Assembly (NCBI GenBank): GCA_041550235.1
Contig: JBFEPE010000002.1
Location: forward strand, 909 to 64,908
Length of the DNA: 64,000 nucleotides
Reading direction: 5' to 3'
Source of the DNA: Minisyncoccia bacterium
GTDB lineage: Bacteria; Patescibacteriota; Minisyncoccia; UBA6257; JAAZHW01
The notes under the pieces were generated by a model, which did not search any database, was not told where the DNA came from, and worked only from the letters and a program-made list of their open reading frames with translations. Positions 1,646-61,814 of this stretch are shown piece after piece (positions within the stretch are counted from its first letter, which is position 1; every line of letters begins with the position of its first letter). The position numbers and the translations under genes were made by a program.

Positions 1646-1785
1646 TTTTTTCTCCTGTTTTTTTTATATTCTATTTTTAAACATTCTTTAAGAAACTTTT
1701 CCCAGTTTCTTGCCTCTATTATATCATAAATAAATATATTTGTCAATATGCGGGGATAATTTGATATATAATGGTAAGGACGAAC

Positions 1786-2578: not shown

Positions 2579-3703
2579 ATGAGAATAAAACTATTTTTCA
2601 AAAAAGCAATTATGGAGATAATGAGTTGGGTGGTTGGAATTTGGGGGGTTTTGAGTAGAAAAAAATTTTCAAATAACCCTCAAAAAATAGCCATTCTTTT
2701 TTTGGATTTAGGAATAGGCGATTCAGTTATGCTTTCGCCCATTATCCAAAAAATTGCTGATATATTCAGCCAATCAAAGGTTTTCTTAATAACCCCAACA
2801 GAAGAAATAATCAATTTTAAAAATGTAGAATACCTTAAAGAGAATGAATTTAAAAAAATAAAAAAAGAATTTGATTTAATTATTTCACCCACTTTGTGCC
2901 TGTGGCACTTTCCTTATATTTTTTCTGCAAAAAATTGGATTGGATATTTTGCCAAAACAAAAATTCAGTCTAATTTTAACTTTTTAAAAAATAAAAAAAT
3001 TATTTATTATAAACCAATAGGAGGGCATTATATTATTAGAGGAATTAATTTAATAAAGGCAATAAACAAAGAGGCGGGGGATGAGATGGAAAGAGATTTT
3101 AATAACAAGAGTATTGAATATCCTCTCTTAATATCAAAAGAGCCATCGTATTTTAAAGATGAATTGGAGGGTAAAAAATATATTGCATTAGCACCTGTTT
3201 GTAAGTCTTTGGCAAAGCAATGGCCATTGATGAATTTTGTTGAGATTTGTCGTTATCTTTTTAAAAATAAGGGATTAGATAAAATTGTTTTGTTGGGCGA
3301 TGGCAGTCAATGGGACAAAAATTTTATTTCTAATATGATAAAAGAATTGAGTGATTTGCCACAGGGGGTAATACTTGATGTTGCTGGAAAGAATACACTC
3401 ACGGAAACAATATTTGTTATTAAAAATTCTGAAATTTTTGTCGGGCTTGATTCGGCGCCAGCTCATTTTGCATATTTAAATACCAAGAAGGTGCTGACTA
3501 TTTTTGTAAATATAAATCCTATGGAGATATCTCCGGTTGGAAATTTGAAAAATGTGGAATTTTTGTTTCCCGATGATGAGAGTTATATTTATGGTTATAG
3601 TGGGCTATTAGAAGGGGATGTTGAGTTTTCTCAGAAGTTATTAAAATCAATGCCTGTTCAAAAGGCAATAGATAAGATAAATAATTTATTTGACAAAAGA
3701 TAA
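2576..3703 (+). CDS. glycosyltransferase family 9 (ADP-heptose:LPS heptosyltransferase-like)
   Basis: GT9 hallmark VGLDSAPAHFAYLNTKKVLTIF (GxDSGxxHLAAA-like) and N-terminal IAILFLDLGIGDSVMLSPI. The N-terminal ~35 aa are atypical, so the start is uncertain. Confidence 0.6.
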   Translation: MMRIKLFFKKAIMEIMSWVVGIWGVLSRKKFSNNPQKIAILFLDLGIGDSVMLSPIIQKIADIFSQSKVFLITPTEEIINFKNVEYLKENEFKKIKKEFDLIISPTLCLWHFPYIFSAKNWIGYFAKTKIQSNFNFLKNKKIIYYKPIGGHYIIRGINLIKAINKEAGDEMERDFNNKSIEYPLLISKEPSYFKDELEGKKYIALAPVCKSLAKQWPLMNFVEICRYLFKNKGLDKIVLLGDGSQWDKNFISNMIKELSDLPQGVILDVAGKNTLTETIFVIKNSEIFVGLDSAPAHFAYLNTKKVLTIFVNINPMEISPVGNLKNVEFLFPDDESYIYGYSGLLEGDVEFSQKLLKSMPVQKAIDKINNLFDKR

Positions 3704-3779
3704 ATTATGAGTATAATGTATATTGAGTAGTGAATATGAAATATTCTTTTTTTATCGGAAAGGTCGCACTACTTATTGA

Positions 3780-24822: not shown

Positions 24823-27195
24823 ATGGATAAAAGTGTGGTAAAAAAATATATTGACTCTCAAAAAAATAAAGCAGTTGAAATGCTTGATTTTGATAATGAA
24901 AAAATAAAATACTCTGATTTAATTAAACAACACAGGGAAATAAAGAATTTTAAGGGAAATGAAGAAATTGTCCGAGCTTATTTATTGTCTAAACTTTCAA
25001 ATGAATTGGGATACAAATTGGAAAATATTGAGATAGAGAAAGAGTATAATCTTGGAAGACCAAAAACAAATAAGCCGAGAATTGACTTAATTGTTCGGGA
25101 TGATGAGGGAAACGCTTTTTTATATATTGAAGTGAAAGGTCCTAATGAATTTGAGAAAAATAAAGATGAAGTAATTGAAAAACAATTATTTGGTTTGGCA
25201 TCTCAAGAAAAAGGACAGGGTAAAAATATAAAATACCTTGTTCTTTATTCAATTGATGTGTTAGGTGAAAAAATAAAAGACAAAGTGGTAATTATTGATT
25301 ATGAAAAATATCCATCTTTTGACAAGTGGGAAGAAGAAAGGAATTTCACCGATGAGTTGCCAAAGAGATATGGCAATGCTCAAAAAGAGCCATATAAGAA
25401 AGGAGGAAAAAAGGATTTGAGAACTGATTTTGCAAATGAAGAATTAGAGGCAAAAAGAAAAAATCTTCATAATGTTTTGTGGGGTGGCGGAGGAACTGAT
25501 GACAATGATATATTTTCTTCATTAGTTAATATAATTTTGGCTAAGATTCAAGATGAAAGAGAAAGAAAAAACGGCGAAAAATATCAATTTCAAATTTTTT
25601 CTTTTCAAGATGGGGGTAGTTTTGAAAGTAATGAAGAAATTTTTGAAAGAATAAACAAACTTTACAGAAGGTCATTGAAGGAAATAATGTATATGACAGA
25701 CGAAAAAGAAATAAACGAAAGTTTTATAATTGACAAAAAGAAGTTTTCTTTGAATAAATTAAAATATACCATTCAAGAATTGGAGGAATATTCATTTATT
25801 GAGGGAAGAAGTAGTTTGGGCGGAAGGGATATTTTGGGCCAATTTTTTGAAGGTATTGTGAGGGACGGCTTTAAGCAAAATAAAGGTCAATTTTTTACTC
25901 ATTCCAATATTATTAAGTTTATTCTTTATACCCTTCAATTAGATAAATTAGCGATAGAAAAAATAAATAAAGATAAGGAAATTCCTTATTTGATTGATCC
26001 ATCGGCTGGAAGCGGGACATTTTTAATTGAATATATGAATTTCATCACTGAAAATATAAAAAGGAAATATAGGGATAAGTTGGATAATAATTTTAATATT
26101 AAAGAAAGGATAAATGATTGGATGCCTGATGGGAGGGAAAATAAATGGGCAAAGGATTTTATTTACGGAATAGAGCATAATTTTAATTTAGGAACTGCCT
26201 CAAAGGTAAATATGGTTTTGCACGGTGATGGCTCTACTAATATTTTTGTCAAAGATGGTTTATTGCCATTCAATTATTATAAAAAAGAAAATGGAATAAA
26301 TATTTTAAAGAATTCGAAGGATGATGAAAAATATTTTGATAAAAGCATTAATGGAAAATTTGACATTGTCATTACTAATCCGCCATTCTCAGTAGATTTA
26401 GACAAGGACACTAAAAAAACATTAAAAGATAGTTTTGTTTTTGGGGATAAGAAAAATTCGGAAAATCTTTTTGTGGAAAGGTGGTATCAATTATTAAAAG
26501 AAAATGGTCGGCTGGGAGTAGTTTTGCCCGAGAGTGTTTTTGATACCGCAGAAAACAAATATATCAGATTATTTTTGTATAAATACTTTAAAATAAAAGC
26601 AGTCGTTTCTCTGCCTCAGTTAGCATTTCAGCCATATACTTCAACTAAAACAAGCTTGCTTTTTGCCCAAAAGAAAACAAAGAAAGAAATTGAAAAATGG
26701 AATGAATTATGGGCAACTTACTCAAATGATTACAATCAATTAAAAACGAGAGCAGAAAAAGAAGTAGAGCATTTTATTAAGGGAAAAGAAATGGATAAAA
26801 AATGGGCCATCTATAAGGAGACAGAAAAAAAGAGAAAAGACAATATTTTAAGATTATTAATTAATAATATTGATGAGGATGATAAAAATTTATCTCTTCA
26901 AAAATTAGTTGAAAAATATCAAGATGAGATAATCGATTTGTTGAAAATAGAAAAAGAAACGGATGTTTTTGGTTTTGTTAATGCTTGGTGGGTGTTTGGC
27001 AATGTTTCAAAAGAATTGGATTATTCTATTTTTATGGCTGAAGTGGAAAATATTGGTTATAAGCGGACAACGAGGGGAGAAAAGACGACATCAAACGACT
27101 TATTTAGGGTGAATAAAGAAGGCGGGGTTATTATTGATGATGTAAAAAAAGAAACTGCCTTGGATTTTATAAGGTCTGATGTAATATGGGATTAG
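24823..27195 (+). CDS. Type IIB/IIG-like restriction-modification enzyme: N-terminal PD-(D/E)xK nuclease domain fused to gamma-class N6-adenine methyltransferase (BcgI-A-like)
   Basis: N-terminus RIDLIVRDDEGNAFLYIEVKG (D..EVK nuclease motif). MTase motif I LIDPSAGSGTFLIE and motif IV IVITNPPFS. No HsdR in the window. Confidence 0.65.
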   Translation: MDKSVVKKYIDSQKNKAVEMLDFDNEKIKYSDLIKQHREIKNFKGNEEIVRAYLLSKLSNELGYKLENIEIEKEYNLGRPKTNKPRIDLIVRDDEGNAFLYIEVKGPNEFEKNKDEVIEKQLFGLASQEKGQGKNIKYLVLYSIDVLGEKIKDKVVIIDYEKYPSFDKWEEERNFTDELPKRYGNAQKEPYKKGGKKDLRTDFANEELEAKRKNLHNVLWGGGGTDDNDIFSSLVNIILAKIQDERERKNGEKYQFQIFSFQDGGSFESNEEIFERINKLYRRSLKEIMYMTDEKEINESFIIDKKKFSLNKLKYTIQELEEYSFIEGRSSLGGRDILGQFFEGIVRDGFKQNKGQFFTHSNIIKFILYTLQLDKLAIEKINKDKEIPYLIDPSAGSGTFLIEYMNFITENIKRKYRDKLDNNFNIKERINDWMPDGRENKWAKDFIYGIEHNFNLGTASKVNMVLHGDGSTNIFVKDGLLPFNYYKKENGINILKNSKDDEKYFDKSINGKFDIVITNPPFSVDLDKDTKKTLKDSFVFGDKKNSENLFVERWYQLLKENGRLGVVLPESVFDTAENKYIRLFLYKYFKIKAVVSLPQLAFQPYTSTKTSLLFAQKKTKKEIEKWNELWATYSNDYNQLKTRAEKEVEHFIKGKEMDKKWAIYKETEKKRKDNILRLLINNIDEDDKNLSLQKLVEKYQDEIIDLLKIEKETDVFGFVNAWWVFGNVSKELDYSIFMAEVENIGYKRTTRGEKTTSNDLFRVNKEGGVIIDDVKKETALDFIRSDVIWD

Positions 27196-27198
27196 ATT

Positions 27199-28641
27199 AT
27201 GATAAAAAGTTTTATAATACAATTTAAGGATTTGGGTTTTGATAAATTTATCAGAAATAATTTTAGAACATTTAATCTAAAATTGAAGATAGATGATTTT
27301 TTTGTTTCTAATAGTGGATTAAAGTTTATTCGCATTAAAGATATTTTTAATATTATTTCAGGGCTTGCTTTTAAGAGTGATGATTATGAACTAGAGGGCA
27401 TTCCCTTAATTAGAATTGGAGATATTGGCGGTAATTTTAAAAACACAAAATATTTGCCCGAGGAATACGAAAAAATATACAAAGATTTTTTATTGAAGAA
27501 ATTTGATTTAATTGTTGGACTAACAGGGGATGGGGATTTTAAGATTGATTTAATAGATACGGATAATAAATACTTACTTAATCAAAGGGTAGGGGTATTG
27601 CGAGTTAAAAACAAAAGAGAGGATGTAAATATTTTATTTTACTATTATCTTTTGAGATGTCTTAATTTTATTGCGGTTCAATTTAATTATTTTTCTAATG
27701 GCAAAACACAATTAAATATAAGCCCCTTTGATTTATTAAATATAAAAATCCCTCTTATCTCTAAGCAAAAACAGGATGAGGTTGTAGAGAAGATAATCCC
27801 TATTGAAAACAACATCAAGAAATTAAAAAATAAGATAGAAAAACCACAAGACATAATTAATGAAGTTTTTGCCGAAGAATTTGGTTTTGATGTTTTTTTA
27901 TTGAATCAATTTGGGAAAGGAATGACCGCGGGGACACAAAATTTGCCCGATAAAAAATTAAGGATTTTTCAAAGAAATTTTTCTGAATTTTCAAGAAGCG
28001 ATATCTTAAGGTTTTCAACGAGATTTCATAATAATTCAACCAAAAATTTAATGAATTTTTTTAATACAATAGAATCTATAAAAGTAAAAGATGTTGTTGA
28101 TTATTGCGAAAAAGGAGTGCAACCAAAATACAATGAAAATGGGGAGATTCCGGTTATAAAAATAATAAATTTGAAGAATAATCATATTGATTTTTTAGAA
28201 ACTGAAAAAATATCAAGGCAATATTTTAATAAATTGGGTAATAAAAATAAATTAAAATTGAATGATATAATCATTTGTGCTACTGGGAAAATATCACTTG
28301 GAAAAATAGATATTTATGAAAACAAAGAAGATGCTATCACTTCATTAGATAATTATATTTTAAGATTAAGAAATATCTATAATCCATTGTTTTTTACCTA
28401 TTTTTTTAGGTCTATTATGGGCTACTTCCAAATAGAAAGAGACTTCACTGGAACTACAAATCAAATTCATCTTTATTGGGATCAAATTTCTAATTTTAGG
28501 GTCCCCAACATCCCATTATCTCATCAAAATAAAATAGTTGAGAATATAAAATCTCGATTAGATAAACAAGAAGAGATTGAAAAAGAAATAGAGATAGAAA
28601 GAAATAAAATAGACAAAATAATTGAGTTGGTTGTGAGATGA
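27199..28641 (+). CDS. restriction-modification specificity subunit with two target-recognition domains (HsdS/BcgI-B-like)
   Basis: Two TRD halves (LIRIGDIGGNF..LLNQRVGVLRV and VIKIINLKNNHIDF..), each followed by a conserved coiled-coil spacer. Starts 4 nt after the upstream gene. Confidence 0.75.
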   Translation: MIKSFIIQFKDLGFDKFIRNNFRTFNLKLKIDDFFVSNSGLKFIRIKDIFNIISGLAFKSDDYELEGIPLIRIGDIGGNFKNTKYLPEEYEKIYKDFLLKKFDLIVGLTGDGDFKIDLIDTDNKYLLNQRVGVLRVKNKREDVNILFYYYLLRCLNFIAVQFNYFSNGKTQLNISPFDLLNIKIPLISKQKQDEVVEKIIPIENNIKKLKNKIEKPQDIINEVFAEEFGFDVFLLNQFGKGMTAGTQNLPDKKLRIFQRNFSEFSRSDILRFSTRFHNNSTKNLMNFFNTIESIKVKDVVDYCEKGVQPKYNENGEIPVIKIINLKNNHIDFLETEKISRQYFNKLGNKNKLKLNDIIICATGKISLGKIDIYENKEDAITSLDNYILRLRNIYNPLFFTYFFRSIMGYFQIERDFTGTTNQIHLYWDQISNFRVPNIPLSHQNKIVENIKSRLDKQEEIEKEIEIERNKIDKIIELVVR

Positions 28642-28672
28642 TGTAATTAAAAAATATTAAGACAAATATATT

Positions 28673-29140
28673 ATGGTGAATAATAATAAAGGTAAAAAAT
28701 TTAATGAAGGCGATAAGATAATCGCATTCACTGACGGAGGAAGTCGGGGAAATCCTGGACCTGCCGCCATTGGTGTATATATCAAGGGAACGAATGGCGA
28801 AGAAAAGAAATATTATGAATTCATTGGCGAGGCAACTAATAATGTCGCCGAATATAAGGCGATGATCTTTGCTTTAAAAAAGATAAGGCAATTAGCCGGG
28901 AGAGATGCTCTTAAGAAAATTTTTGTGGAAATAAATATGGATTCTGAATTAATTGTGCGACAATTGAATGGGGAATATAAGGTTGAGGAAAAAGAACTTC
29001 AAGGATTATTTATGGAAGTTTGGAATTTAAGATTTGATTTTCCAAATTTGAAATTTAATTATATTCCTCGCGAGGAAAATAAGATGGCTGACTCCCTCGT
29101 CAATATCTGCTTAGACGAGGAGGCAAGTAGATTATTTTAA
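28673..29140 (+). CDS. rnhA: ribonuclease HI
   Basis: FTDGGSRGNPGPAAIGV .. NNVAEYKAMIFALKK. Confidence 0.85.
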   Translation: MVNNNKGKKFNEGDKIIAFTDGGSRGNPGPAAIGVYIKGTNGEEKKYYEFIGEATNNVAEYKAMIFALKKIRQLAGRDALKKIFVEINMDSELIVRQLNGEYKVEEKELQGLFMEVWNLRFDFPNLKFNYIPREENKMADSLVNICLDEEASRLF

Positions 29141-30577: not shown

Positions 30578-30614
30578 ATTTTGATGTTGGTTGGTAAGTT
30601 AATATAGGAAATAT

Positions 30615-30800
30615 AGGGCAAGGAGAAACACCCCGTCTGTTTTCGGCGGGACGTAATAAATTATTTCATAATTTAAACGTCCCAGCCACGTTGAAATTGC
30701 GAGGCAATTTTTTACGTGGCGAGGCGAAACCCGCCTTCGTCAACCCGCCTTCGCTAAAGCTACGGCAGGGCAAGGGACTTCGGCGAGGCGAAGAAAAATA
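30615..30800. repeat. composite GC-hairpin repeat block
   Basis: ACACCCCGTCTG, CCACGTTGAAATTGCGAGGCAATTTTTTACGTGGCGAGGCGAAACCCGCCTTCG, CTACGGCAGGGCAAGGGACTTCGGCGAGGCGAAG. Confidence 0.7.
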
Positions 30801-30857
30801 ACCCGTTTCTGCACATTGCTTGTTGCTTTGTGCAAAAACAGGTTTGATTGATCGAGA

Positions 30858-31061
30858 TTATTTGTTCTTTTGTTGGTTTCGACTAGGGATTTTAATAAGG
30901 ATAAGCCAAAGAATTTGCAGGGTAATAACCAAAATCAAGTAGATGTTGAGATTTATTATTGTGTGGGGGTAAGATAATAAATGGAATAATCCCGCCCCAA
31001 ACAATATTGGCCAAAGTGTAAATATGAGCATAAAGACTGGACCAAATATTATCTTAATCAT
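30858..31061 (-). CDS. small hydrophobic membrane protein (67 aa, 2 TM)
   Basis: Last gene of a minus-strand three-gene unit. 4-nt overlap with the upstream ORF. Confidence 0.4.
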   Translation of the reverse strand: MIKIIFGPVFMLIFTLWPILFGAGLFHLLSYPHTIINLNIYLILVITLQILWLILIKIPSRNQQKNK

Positions 31062-31315
31062 CCCGCACCTCCTTGTTCTTGACTATTCTCAATGATTTCA
31101 AAAATACTTTCTTGGACTTTTTCTTCAGATTTTGATAAATGATTGAGTAGGGCATTCATGATGGCAGTATTCCTTGTGTATCTACTTACCCCTATTCCAT
31201 ATCCTATAGGACAATGCATTTCTTTATCATAATATAGTCTTGCCTCCCATCTGAATTCATCATCGGGGGAAAATTTTGTAGAAACATAGATTTTAGGTTT
31301 AAATTCTTTTCCCAT
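31058..31315 (-). CDS. hypothetical 85-aa protein
   Basis: AGGAGG RBS precedes the ATG. Coding-like composition. Confidence 0.5.
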   Translation of the reverse strand: MGKEFKPKIYVSTKFSPDDEFRWEARLYYDKEMHCPIGYGIGVSRYTRNTAIMNALLNHLSKSEEKVQESIFEIIENSQEQGGAG

Positions 31316-31325
31316 TTCAGCCTCC

Positions 31326-31478
31326 TTACACGAACATTAGAAGCACAAAAGATCCGATGAGAATGGCGCTTGCGATAATGATAGCGATTTTGATTTTCCG
31401 TTTAGTATTCTTGCCGAAATTTCCTTTCAGAGAATTCTTTCCTAATTTTCTGTTTTGTCTGTTCTTTCTCTTACTCAT
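31326..31478 (-). CDS. small (50 aa) basic-N-terminus, single-TM protein; not in the ORF track
   Basis: Own translation: MSKRKNRQNRKLGKNSLKGNFGKNTKRKIKIAIIIASAILIGSFVLLMFV*. RBS ATAGGAGGTA lies upstream. Confidence 0.4.
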   Translation of the reverse strand: MSKRKNRQNRKLGKNSLKGNFGKNTKRKIKIAIIIASAILIGSFVLLMFV

Positions 31479-31560
31479 TTTTAAATACCTCCTATATTTT
31501 TAAATTTTTTCAAAATTTACTACTACTACTATTTAATAACGAAAATAAAAATTTGTCAAT

Positions 31561-34769: not shown

Positions 34770-34908
34770 TTGGATATTTAGATTTGTGAATATATAAATA
34801 TATAAATATATAAGATGGTAATGATAAAGAAATCTATCTCCGCCCCGCCAAGGGCGGGGCGGAGATTTTAAGAATAGGTTTTGAATTAGAGGGTTGGTTT
34901 TTGGGGTA

Positions 34909-34936
34909 TTGACAAATTATTTAAATTGTGTATAAT
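34909..34936 (+). promoter_or_regulatory. near-consensus sigma70 promoter TTGACA-N16-TATAAT
   Basis: GGGGTATTGACAAATTATTTAAATTGTGTATAATGG. Confidence 0.6.
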
Positions 34937-34942
34937 GGATAG

Positions 34943-35215
34943 CAGATAATGAGTGGTTTGCTATAGGCAACACTCTTTCGCTATTAGCGAGATTAAATCA
35001 TAGCAGGGATAAGACCGGTCTTGGCGGGTCCCCGGCGAAAAAAAGATAGGCTATCTTCTTTTCGCTCAACAGCCAAGTCTCTCACGAAAAAAAGAATCCT
35101 GCGTGAGAGAGCATATCAGGACCAACTATTTACAATAATAGTTGAAGTAGTATGAAGAAGGGGCCTGGGCGGTCATTTGGTTTAATAAACCATTTGGTCT
35201 CTCAGGTGCCCATTT
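34943..35215 (+). ncRNA. candidate structured small RNA or long structured leader (about 270 nt), family not identified
   Basis: Follows a consensus promoter. Local stems: CTCTCACG..CGTGAGAG, GGTTTAATAAACC, GACCGGTC. Ends at a T-run (35211-35225). No ORF of 60 aa or more. Confidence 0.35.
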
Positions 35216-35247
35216 TTTATTTTAATAAAATATGATAAAGTAGGGGT

Positions 35248-35454
35248 ATGAATAAAGATGTGCAAAAAATTAAAAAGAGTGTTTGTAAAGTTAGTTGTTG
35301 TCGGGGCGGTTGTTTTAAATCAAGTCATCATATTTCACCTATCAAAAAAGAAGATTTGAAGGAGAAGGCAAAAAGGGCTACATTAAAAGTACTCAAGGAG
35401 TATAAAGGGGTATTTCATAGGCTTGCTGAATATGATAGAGGATTGCCAAAATAA
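35248..35454 (+). CDS. small Cys-rich protein (68 aa), putative cognate antitoxin of the downstream Doc-family toxin
   Basis: Overlaps the Doc ORF by 32 nt. CKVSCCRGGC cluster. Not Phd-like. Confidence 0.4.
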   Translation: MNKDVQKIKKSVCKVSCCRGGCFKSSHHISPIKKEDLKEKAKRATLKVLKEYKGVFHRLAEYDRGLPK

Positions 35455-35899
35455 TATTAATAAGATTAATATTAAGATTATGGAGATTATGTGTCATCCA
35501 ATGGCGATGGATTTTTTTAATTCAAAAACAGATCCAATTTCCTGTTTTTCAAGACATGATAGGAATAAGTTAGAAGCAATTCTTAATAATCCATATCAAA
35601 CATTTAACCAGAAAGAATTATACCCAACATTTAATAAAAAAGTGGCAATACTTTATTATGGATTAATAAAGGGGCATTGTTTTGAGAATGGAAATAAAAG
35701 AATAGCCACTGCTACTCTTTTAGTATTTTTGTTAATAAATGATATTTTTATTACGGGAGATTATCAAGAAATAGAAGACTATTTAGTTGATTTAGCATTG
35801 AGATTGGCATCATCAGAAGGCAACGATAAAATGGATGATTTTCTTTTGGAAATTGAGAAATGGCTTGATGGTAATACAATAAAAACATTAAACTATTAA
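35423..35899 (+). CDS. doc: Fic/Doc-family protein, Doc (death-on-curing) toxin type
   Basis: HCFENGNKRIA matches the Doc signature Hx-F-x-(D/N)-G-N-K-R. Confidence 0.7.
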   Translation: MLNMIEDCQNNINKINIKIMEIMCHPMAMDFFNSKTDPISCFSRHDRNKLEAILNNPYQTFNQKELYPTFNKKVAILYYGLIKGHCFENGNKRIATATLLVFLLINDIFITGDYQEIEDYLVDLALRLASSEGNDKMDDFLLEIEKWLDGNTIKTLNY

Positions 35900-38926: not shown

Positions 38927-39457
38927 ATGAGCATCAAGAGAAAAATAATAATCGCAATTTATTATATAATTATTTTATTTGCCTCTATCTTATTATGGGG
39001 TAGGATTGAATACTCACTTTTTCCTAATAACATCAATGATATATTTTTTTCTATCCTATATGCCATTTCTTTTTCCTTGATGGGATTTTCTATTGTTATT
39101 TTTTTCTACAAAAGATTTGATTGGGCGAAAAGAAATGTTGAGCAATATCAAAATGATTTTAAAAATTTTAAATTATTAAATCATTTGGCAATAATAATAT
39201 TGCCAATTATAGAAGAGATTTTCTTTAGAGGGCTTATTCTTTCTTATTTTGGTTTTTGGATTTCAGTGGTTTTGTTTGGATTGCCTCATGCTATTTTTTT
39301 CAGAAAAGAAGCGGTTTCTACATTCATAACGGTATTCTTATGGGGGATAATTTTCAATACCCTTCTTCTAATCACATCATCATTATTAGCCCCAATAATT
39401 TGTCATATTTTAATAGTTTATTATAGGATTATATTCGTTAAGACTTCGACGGAATGA
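38927..39457 (+). CDS. CPBP-family intramembrane metalloprotease (CAAX protease/Abi-like)
   Basis: IIEEIFFRGLIL (EExxxR) and FGLPHAIFF motifs. Confidence 0.7.
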   Translation: MSIKRKIIIAIYYIIILFASILLWGRIEYSLFPNNINDIFFSILYAISFSLMGFSIVIFFYKRFDWAKRNVEQYQNDFKNFKLLNHLAIIILPIIEEIFFRGLILSYFGFWISVVLFGLPHAIFFRKEAVSTFITVFLWGIIFNTLLLITSSLLAPIICHILIVYYRIIFVKTSTE

Positions 39458-59581: not shown

Positions 59582-60122
59582 TAGGAAAGTGTTCTTCTTC
59601 TAGTCTCTTTTTTCAGATTTCTCCTTACAAGAGTTAGGAGGGGGGTTGGTCTCATTAAAAATATTATGTATATAGAGAGACAGAATAACGAGAAGTTAAC
59701 GGGAGCAATTATGGGCAAAATGTCTAATGGTAATCCAAATAAACCCAAGCATGCTATAATCGTTATTGAAAGCAATAAAATCGGTACCCTAAGCATAATA
59801 TAAACAGCAAGTAATAATAAAATTTTTTTTGCACTCATTTCTTTTCTCCTTATTATAATATTTTCTTACTTTTAAATTGTACTACTTTATCTATACTCAT
59901 TATAACATATTCATAAAAATTTGTCAAGGGGCTGAAAATGTGTCATTATATATCACGAAAATAAGGGTATATATTGAAATCTTTAAATAAATAATTAAAC
60001 TAATAAGATTATATTAAAATAGAGGGATTGCCTCCCCCTCGCAAAGCGAGGGGGAGGCAGGGCATTGATATAATTAATAAATAATTAAACTAATAATAAA
60101 ATAATTAATATCATAAAATACC

Positions 60123-61235: not shown

Positions 61236-61814
61236 ATGTTTGATAAGAATAATCAACAATTTAATAATAGAGGTAGGGGTAAAAAAGGTCCATTTAAGGG
61301 AAGAGGCAGAAGACCGATGATTGAAAAGAAGTATGATGAAAAACTTCTTAGTTTGGATAGAGTAGTCCGAGTAACCGCTGGAGGAAAGAGGTTTAGTTTT
61401 AGGGCAACTATGGCAATGGGCGACAAGAAGGGAAAGGTAGGAGTAGGTATTGCCAAGGGAAAGGATGTCGCTTCTGCTATTGCCAAAGCAAAGGCGGATG
61501 CTGAAAAAAACATGATTTCTCTTAATATCTCCGAAAGAACAATTCCTCATGAGACAAGGGCAAAATATTGTGCAGCTGATATAATAATAAAACCAGCAAG
61601 CGCTGGTCATGGATTGGTGGCTGGTGGAGCAATAAGAACAATTTGTGATTTAGTAGGAATAAGGGATATTTCAGCTAAGAAGTTGGGAAATACGAGCAAT
61701 CAATTGAGTAATGCGAGGGCGACTATTCTCGCTCTACAAAAGTTGAGATTTAAGGATTTAGGAAAGAAGGAGGAGGTTGCTTCTTCTGTCACTCCTGCGG
61801 AGGCAGGGGCTTAA
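61236..61814 (+). CDS. rpsE: 30S ribosomal protein S5
   Basis: RVVRVTAGGKRFSFRATMAMGDKKGKVGVGIAKGKDV. Confidence 0.85.
   Translation: MFDKNNQQFNNRGRGKKGPFKGRGRRPMIEKKYDEKLLSLDRVVRVTAGGKRFSFRATMAMGDKKGKVGVGIAKGKDVASAIAKAKADAEKNMISLNISERTIPHETRAKYCAADIIIKPASAGHGLVAGGAIRTICDLVGIRDISAKKLGNTSNQLSNARATILALQKLRFKDLGKKEEVASSVTPAEAGA

Follow-up and report, generated by a model that had tools for sequence, protein, structure and literature searches.

The comparative analysis we carried out on the 64-kb window (the whole stretch of DNA that was analysed, from the AT-rich genome of a Minisyncoccia bacterium) clearly shows that an RNA of about 280 nt, encoded on the plus strand with its own promoter and terminator, is a real and previously unclassified structured RNA. 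A first-pass annotation made from the sequence had left this RNA unassigned, as neither tmRNA, RNase P RNA nor SRP RNA, and that assignment agrees well with our results: Rfam and ARAGORN searches are negative, the structure covaries, and the sequence diverges quickly. The comparative alignment that the annotation had proposed as a check recovered a conserved, covarying structure in relatives.

Transcription is expected to start at about 34942-34944, downstream of a promoter (P1, 34909-34936) in which TTGACA (34909-14) and TATAAT (34931-36) are separated by a 16-nt spacer. The near-consensus sigma70 promoter reported at this position is thus a 12 out of 12 match to TTGACA-N16-TATAAT. Near-identical copies of P1 are found in the three relatives described below (L002, L057 and, in part, L111), and the upstream gene, which encodes a 547-aa protein, ends in a terminator of its own at 34836-34866. 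The further claim that P1 is the single best promoter of the window does not stand, as perfect TTGACA-N16-18-TATAAT sites number four in the 64 kb, where 0.07 would be expected. The remaining ones are at 1718-1746 (minus strand), 3690-3717 (plus strand) and 59899-59927 (minus strand), each just 5' of a protein gene (a 140-aa, a 112-aa and a 104-aa ORF, respectively).

The predicted 286-nt transcript has a minimum free energy (MFE) of -94 kcal/mol, compared with -68.8 +/- 5.3 for shuffled sequences (z = -4.79; 0 of 200 shuffles as good), and the G+C content of the RNA stretch is 44%, against 25-33% in the flanks. It ends at an intrinsic terminator (35160-35223) made of a long imperfect hairpin at 35160-35211 (-30 kcal/mol, z = -5.0) and a T-run at 35212-35223 (ATTTTTTATTTT), and the terminal T-run seen at first pass does, then, follow a strong hairpin. 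Each of the three full-length copies (window, L111 and L057) has its own terminator; those of L111 and L057 are different, strong G+C-rich hairpins (-23 and -25 kcal/mol, respectively, each with z about -6) with CUUCUUUUUUAUUUU after them. The absence of any ORF of at least 60 aa from the stretch of about 270 nt was also borne out, the longest ORF within 34937-35225 being a 44-aa frame with a TTG start. None of the ORFs checked across the homologues (the 44-aa plus-strand ORF and minus-strand ORFs of 30-34 aa) is conserved in frame or strand, and the minus-strand ORFs over the conserved blocks lie in different reading frames in different homologues.

Known families do not account for the RNA. 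The cmscan comparison with Rfam, also proposed as a check, gave no match to it, either at gathering thresholds, where Rfam 15 returned only tRNAs from the window, or at E <= 10, where nothing relevant overlapped the core in the window, L002, L111 or L057. For tmRNA, ARAGORN reported seven tRNAs and no tmRNA in the window, and the Rfam tmRNA models gave no match. RNase P RNA models had no match at E <= 10 in the window or the three homologues; SRP RNA models had none, and the domain IV motif is absent from the sequence. There was also no 6S RNA match in the window or the three homologues, and both the MFE fold and the comparative structure are multi-hairpin rather than a rod. The universal P4, T-arm and domain IV motifs are all missing from the RNA. 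T-box leader models found nothing in the window or the homologues, and the nearby ValRS gene runs convergently instead of lying downstream. No published RNA motif connected with Doc genes or with Patescibacteria turned up in our literature search. The Patescibacteria account for much of the diversity of bacteria, and almost nothing is known of their regulatory RNAs; the present locus is a clean candidate, with a promoter, a terminator, a compact core supported by covariation and a defined protein neighbour.

Homologues of the RNA are few. An identical copy (L001, Logan SRR29257546) was recovered through an exact look-up of the upstream protein, and a second genome (L002, NCBI GCA_041548905.1) was found through the same protein, which is 97% identical there. 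The flank and promoter of L002 are about 98% identical to the window and the RNA body is sharply divergent, the contig stopping inside the RNA. A full-length copy (L111, Logan SRR15144438) was reached through the Doc homologue P0118 (98% identical), and a motif scan in which each GTDB species was represented by a single genome yielded a full locus with an extra ORF in a Ca. Paceibacteria MAG (L057). L057 was the only real one among the 23 hits of that scan, the rest being chance matches in high-G+C genomes. All 44 hits of a motif scan of JGI metagenomes were likewise chance matches, the 39 hits in viral contigs were phage coding genes, and BLAST against phages gave no match. More distant homologues of the 547-aa protein (48% identity; L003 and L004) are followed directly by infA and lack the RNA, and P0244, which had been taken for part of the ValRS cluster, proved to be an unrelated 50-aa ORF. 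Four loci were all that came to light across the JGI metagenomes and the genomes of about 185,000 species, and as far as seen the RNA family is confined to one genus-level group of ultra-small Paceibacteria with four distinct sequences.

The conserved core spans 34992-35122, about 130 nt (125-131 nt across the variants), and its helices are held by compensatory changes. A covariance model (R1) built from L111, L002 and L057 only, with the window left out, matches the window core at 75.5 bits (E = 6e-20) and has no other copy to report from the 64 kb; the next-best match, 16 bits at 61722-61809, lies inside a 205-aa ORF and was taken as chance. The core comprises H3a (GGG 35006-08 with CCC 35031-33), which never varies, H3b (35013-16 with 35027-30), H4 (35034-35066) and H5 (35078-86 with 35102-10). 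In the alignment of the four sequences (A8), 98.6% of the cells form standard pairs and eight base pairs are changed on both sides (3 of 4 in H3b, 2 of 10 in H4 and 3 of 9 in H5), a covariation support that is qualitative, since the sequences number four, two have almost the same core, and the alignment was fitted to the model. Sliding the partners by 1-3 columns as a control gave 0-1 both-sided changes and 42-62% pairing. Two of the local stems listed at first pass belong to this architecture, GTCTCTCACG..CGTGAGAGAG being H5 and GGTTTAATAAACC the tip of the terminator. The third, the palindrome GACCGGTC, forms no hairpin: it is absent from the homologues, and in the structure derived from their alignment GACC at 35013-16 pairs with GGTC at 35027-30 over a 10-nt loop.

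The core also has invariant junction blocks, GCAGGGAUAA (35003-12), CUUGGCGG (35020-27) and ACAG (35069-72). Among the invariant unpaired blocks, the longest are complementary to one another, CUUGG to CCAAG and (C)UCCUG to CAGGA(G), which suggests two pseudoknots. Putative pseudoknot PK-A (35020-35077) would join the H3b loop (CUUGG, 35020-24) to CCAAG (35073-77), strands that are invariant and complementary in all four sequences. Putative pseudoknot PK-B (35097-35121) would join the H5 loop (UCCUG, 35097-101) to CAGGA (35117-21); five to six base pairs are possible in each of the four sequences, with a single change from U-A to U-G in L111 and no double changes. Because the paired blocks are invariant, both pseudoknots lack covariation support and remain proposals.

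On either side of the core the RNA is made of variable modules. In the MFE fold, the 5' module (34951-34992) consists of a two-tier hairpin, H1 (34951-34975), and a second hairpin, H2 (34976-34992). H1 is kept as a two-tier hairpin of other sequence in L002 and L057; in place of H2, L002 and L111 have another hairpin, and the H2 of L057 is weak. The 3' module begins with H6 (35123-35144), a hairpin in all four sequences and of unrelated sequence in each, where the homologues also have one or two extra small hairpins rich in G+C. The 3' module of L111 contains, at 226-295, a 35-nt tandem repeat (2.1 copies, 86% matches) made up of small hairpins; no tandem repeats were found in the RNA of the window or of L057.

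The RNA is the divergence hotspot of its locus. Between the window and L057, ValRS is 95% identical, Doc 84% and the antitoxin 63-68%, and the RNA is 62-68% identical in the core and 24-47% in the 3' module; among relatives generally, core identity is 62-69%. Compared with L111, the flanks of the window are 95-100% identical and the RNA interior (about 34975-35215) only 28-62%. L111 is moreover a mosaic, with H1 as in the window, H2-H5 as in L002 and the terminator as in L057, which suggests that alleles have been exchanged by recombination within an accessory cassette. Such strain-level mosaicism, an interior swapped between near-identical flanks, indicates that in these small genomes structured RNAs can act as hotspots of recombination.

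Our attention to the downstream genes supports the earlier placement of the RNA just 5' of a Doc-type operon, which consists of a 68-aa ORF (35248-35454) and a Fic/DOC gene (35432-35899), with the convergent ValRS gene 3' of it. The second gene encodes a Doc-type toxin with the motif HCFENGNKR (Pfam Fic, 1.7e-11; TIGR01550 DOC_P1, 48.3 bits, 1e-12) and overlaps the stop codon of the first. The 68-aa product is a putative antitoxin: it matches nothing in Pfam or NCBIfam, and a protein search returned only itself, but its C-terminal half can be aligned with the partners, 49-59 aa long, of other Patescibacteria Doc toxins (..KALKEYxRVFxRLAEYD). Between the conserved N-terminus and this half lies a Cys/His/RGG-rich insert, CKVSCCRGGCFKSSHH (residues 13-28; 35284-35331), which varies among close relatives (CKDGCC.. 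in L111, CKDGCCQHQLHCCCG in L057) and may bind a metal. The small antitoxin overlapping a Doc toxin recalls type II phd-doc. Classic phd-doc, however, is autoregulated at a DNA operator with no long structured RNA upstream, and no Phd/YefM domain can be recognised in the present antitoxin, which does have the Cys/His-rich insert.

The RNA is linked to this operon, standing directly 5' of antitoxin and Doc at every locus with visible downstream DNA (the window, L111 and L057). Doc homologues at 59-68% identity have no RNA and no room for one; those at 62-68% identity (L112-L126) have just 85-130 nt upstream, and their antitoxins of 49-59 aa are without the Cys-rich insert. The insert has been seen only in RNA-bearing genomes and is missing from distant antitoxins.

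Immediately before the antitoxin ATG is a box, ATATGATAAAGT-N6-ATG (35230-35247), that has the form of an extended -10 element and is probably a promoter of the toxin-antitoxin operon itself (P2), from which the antitoxin mRNA would start leaderless or nearly so. For a normal Shine-Dalgarno sequence, the G-run ahead of the ATG lies too near the start codon. The box is identical in L057 and altered in L111 only within the 6 nt before the ATG, and the same geometry, ATATGATATTGT-N6-ATG, occurs in three distant Doc loci (L124, L125 and L118), all without the RNA. A box of the form ATATGATAWWGT-N6-ATG is common to Doc operons at only about 60% protein identity. The first-pass annotation had offered a choice between a new sRNA and a long structured leader; the structured RNA stands, and the conservation of this promoter-like box favours a separate transcription unit. 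Should P2 not be a promoter, the RNA would simply be the operon leader.

We therefore set out the readings of the RNA in order of how well they fit. The one we favour, tentatively, is that it would be a separate accessory non-coding RNA and the regulatory partner of the Doc toxin-antitoxin genes beside it. The arrangement of promoter, structured RNA, terminator and toxin genes resembles that of type III toxin-antitoxin loci. P1 would make the RNA in excess, with most transcription stopping at the terminator, and antitoxin and Doc would be transcribed from their own P2 box, plus any read-through. The RNA may then serve as the protein-binding partner of the cassette, the best candidate for its reader being the Cys/His/RGG insert of the antitoxin, and an abundant, short-lived RNA could report the transcription state to the toxin-antitoxin pair. 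If the RNA does talk to the Doc pair, an RNA layer would have been added to a type II system, which would explain the metal-binding-like insert of the antitoxin. Direct pairing of the RNA with the start of the antitoxin mRNA is not favoured by RNAduplex, which gave energies no better than those of shuffled sequences. An RNA partner is unnecessary for neutralisation, because a protein antitoxin is already present. It is also possible that, all four copies being of one lineage, the co-occurrence of RNA and Cys-rich insert reflects a single event and plain linkage.

A possible if doubtful alternative is that the RNA works in cis as a leader (a riboswitch, or an attenuator that responds to a protein or an RNA), through which P1 read-through would control antitoxin and Doc, the core being the sensor and the variable hairpins and terminator the expression platform. 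Terminator riboswitches and attenuators likewise have a covarying core, invariant junctions, variable hairpins and a terminator upstream of genes, and the order found here is the classic aptamer-plus-platform pattern, with invariant junctions and covarying stems first, then a stretch of low conservation, and a terminator just ahead of the genes. A simple promoter scan also found no second promoter between terminator and ATG; it left P2 uncalled because it needs a -35 element. The SAM-I riboswitch, in which the P2 loop pairs with the J3/4 junction, offers a topological lead and no more, since PK-A would similarly link the H3 loop to the H4/H5 junction; the present RNA, however, has neither sequence similarity to SAM-I nor an enclosing P1 helix, and the Rfam SAM models were negative. 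The pattern of divergence fits a leader poorly, as the core differs by 31-38% where ValRS differs by 5%, unlike metabolite aptamers under purifying selection. Manual inspection found no anti-terminator pairing common to the variants: a 7-bp alternative pairing of the 3' strand of H5 with the 3' strand of the terminator is possible in the window only and is absent from L111 and L057. Moreover, 40-110 nt of unrelated hairpins separate core and terminator, an ORF lies upstream of the core in L057, and the operon seems to keep its own promoter box, which persists in relatives without the RNA. Riboswitches also differ from this RNA in that it matches no known class, diverges very fast and is limited to one genus-level group, with four loci in all those genomes and metagenomes.

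The ORF of L057 raises another reading. At L057:3553-3685 (minus strand), under the same promoter, between P1 and H1 and hence upstream of the core, is a 44-aa ORF, MKSKKLQLNKITITSLSEPSASNYQCISNPTCGVACSGDTCGNC, with a canonical Shine-Dalgarno sequence. Its product scores 23.7 bits with the class I lanthipeptide leader model NF038153, which has a cutoff of 22, and H1 of L057 encloses its stop codon. The window has at 34948-34965 a five-codon remnant, AUG AGU GGU UUG CUA UAG. Here the AUG and AGUGG match both edges of the L057 ORF, in its start and C-terminal regions (..AAUAAUGA.. and ..AUGUAGUGG..), like the scar of an internal deletion, which suggests that the peptide ORF was lost in this way in the window lineage. 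The RNA might thus be the 3' UTR of a lanthipeptide-like precursor gene, a stabiliser of its mRNA or a partial terminator with no functional link to Doc, the ORF being intact in L057 and deleted in the window, L111 and L002 while the RNA persists. The L057 core, 3' of the peptide ORF on the same transcript, could in that case belong to the peptide gene and not to the toxin-antitoxin pair. Simple stem-loop attenuators follow lantibiotic precursor genes, for example nisA, and the L057 RNA and its terminator likewise come after a lanthipeptide-like ORF and before further genes. We nevertheless consider this reading unlikely. The nisA-type attenuators are simple hairpins, and a simple hairpin suffices for 3' stabilisation, whereas the core here is a 130-nt multi-helix structure and three of the four loci have no ORF. 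Structure-preserving double changes distinguish even the ORF-less copies (window compared with L002 and L111), which suggests continued selection without the ORF. No lanthipeptide enzymes were seen in the window at 23-40 kb or on the short L057 contig.

A stronger version of the regulatory-partner reading that we favour is improbable, namely that the RNA would be an obligatory third component of a Doc toxin-antitoxin or defence module, abundant, labile and pseudoknotted, which the Cys/His/RGG insert of the antitoxin would recognise. Improbable too is that the core would represent a new ribozyme or ligand-sensing class. If the RNA were such an obligatory component, loss of transcription, for instance under phage attack, would free Doc, and the module would combine type II with type III logic, RNA and protein reader diversifying together.

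The known type III loci (ToxIN, CptIN and TenpIN), in which the promoter is constitutive, share with the window, L111 and L057 the order of promoter, structured RNA, Rho-independent terminator and toxin genes; their RNAs are structured, as is this putatively pseudoknotted one, and both are accessory and evolve fast. The antitoxin RNAs of type III systems, however, are tandemly repeated units of about 34-45 nt, where we find one multi-helix core of 130 nt; a 35-nt repeat, in 2.1 copies, is present in L111 and absent from the window and L057 RNAs. Type III toxins, in turn, are endoribonucleases of the ToxN/AbiQ/CptN/TenpN kind, in contrast to the Doc kinase-type toxin with a protein antitoxin encoded here. 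Taken as analogies, the closest systems, which are type III loci, terminator riboswitches and lantibiotic attenuators, are alike in architecture only.

That the transcript holds a new self-cleaving ribozyme or other catalytic RNA is very unlikely. Small ribozymes often occur among fast-evolving accessory genes, and this RNA has such a setting, together with a compact core, two possible pseudoknots and invariant junction nucleotides, but it matches no Rfam ribozyme family and has no sequence feature marking a cleavage site, and four sequences cannot separate invariant nucleotides from recent common ancestry. A divergent housekeeping RNA (tmRNA, RNase P, SRP or 6S) missed by the Rfam models is effectively refuted: the strong promoter, the length of about 280 nt and the divergent RNAs for which Patescibacteria are known would suit one, but none of the four variants has an Rfam match at E <= 10, ARAGORN is negative, pattern scans find the RNA absent from other Patescibacteria, L057 carries an ORF insertion, whole hairpins are swapped, gained or lost between strains, and mosaicism and divergence (31-38% in the core and more than 50% in the 3' module, between strains with 95% identical ValRS) far above those of the neighbouring ValRS are incompatible with a housekeeping role.

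Three further features lie in the wider neighbourhood of the RNA. A few kb upstream, at 24823-29140, is another accessory block, in which type I restriction-modification genes (methylase and specificity) precede a 155-aa gene of the RNase H / RVT_3-like kind. The mraZ-mraW pair is normally tight; here about 1 kb (30578-31560) separates the two genes and contains three small minus-strand ORFs (85, 67 and 50 aa). Near the cassette, at 38927-39457, and also in L111, lies a gene for an Rce1-like CAAX protease, a family often linked to bacteriocin immunity.
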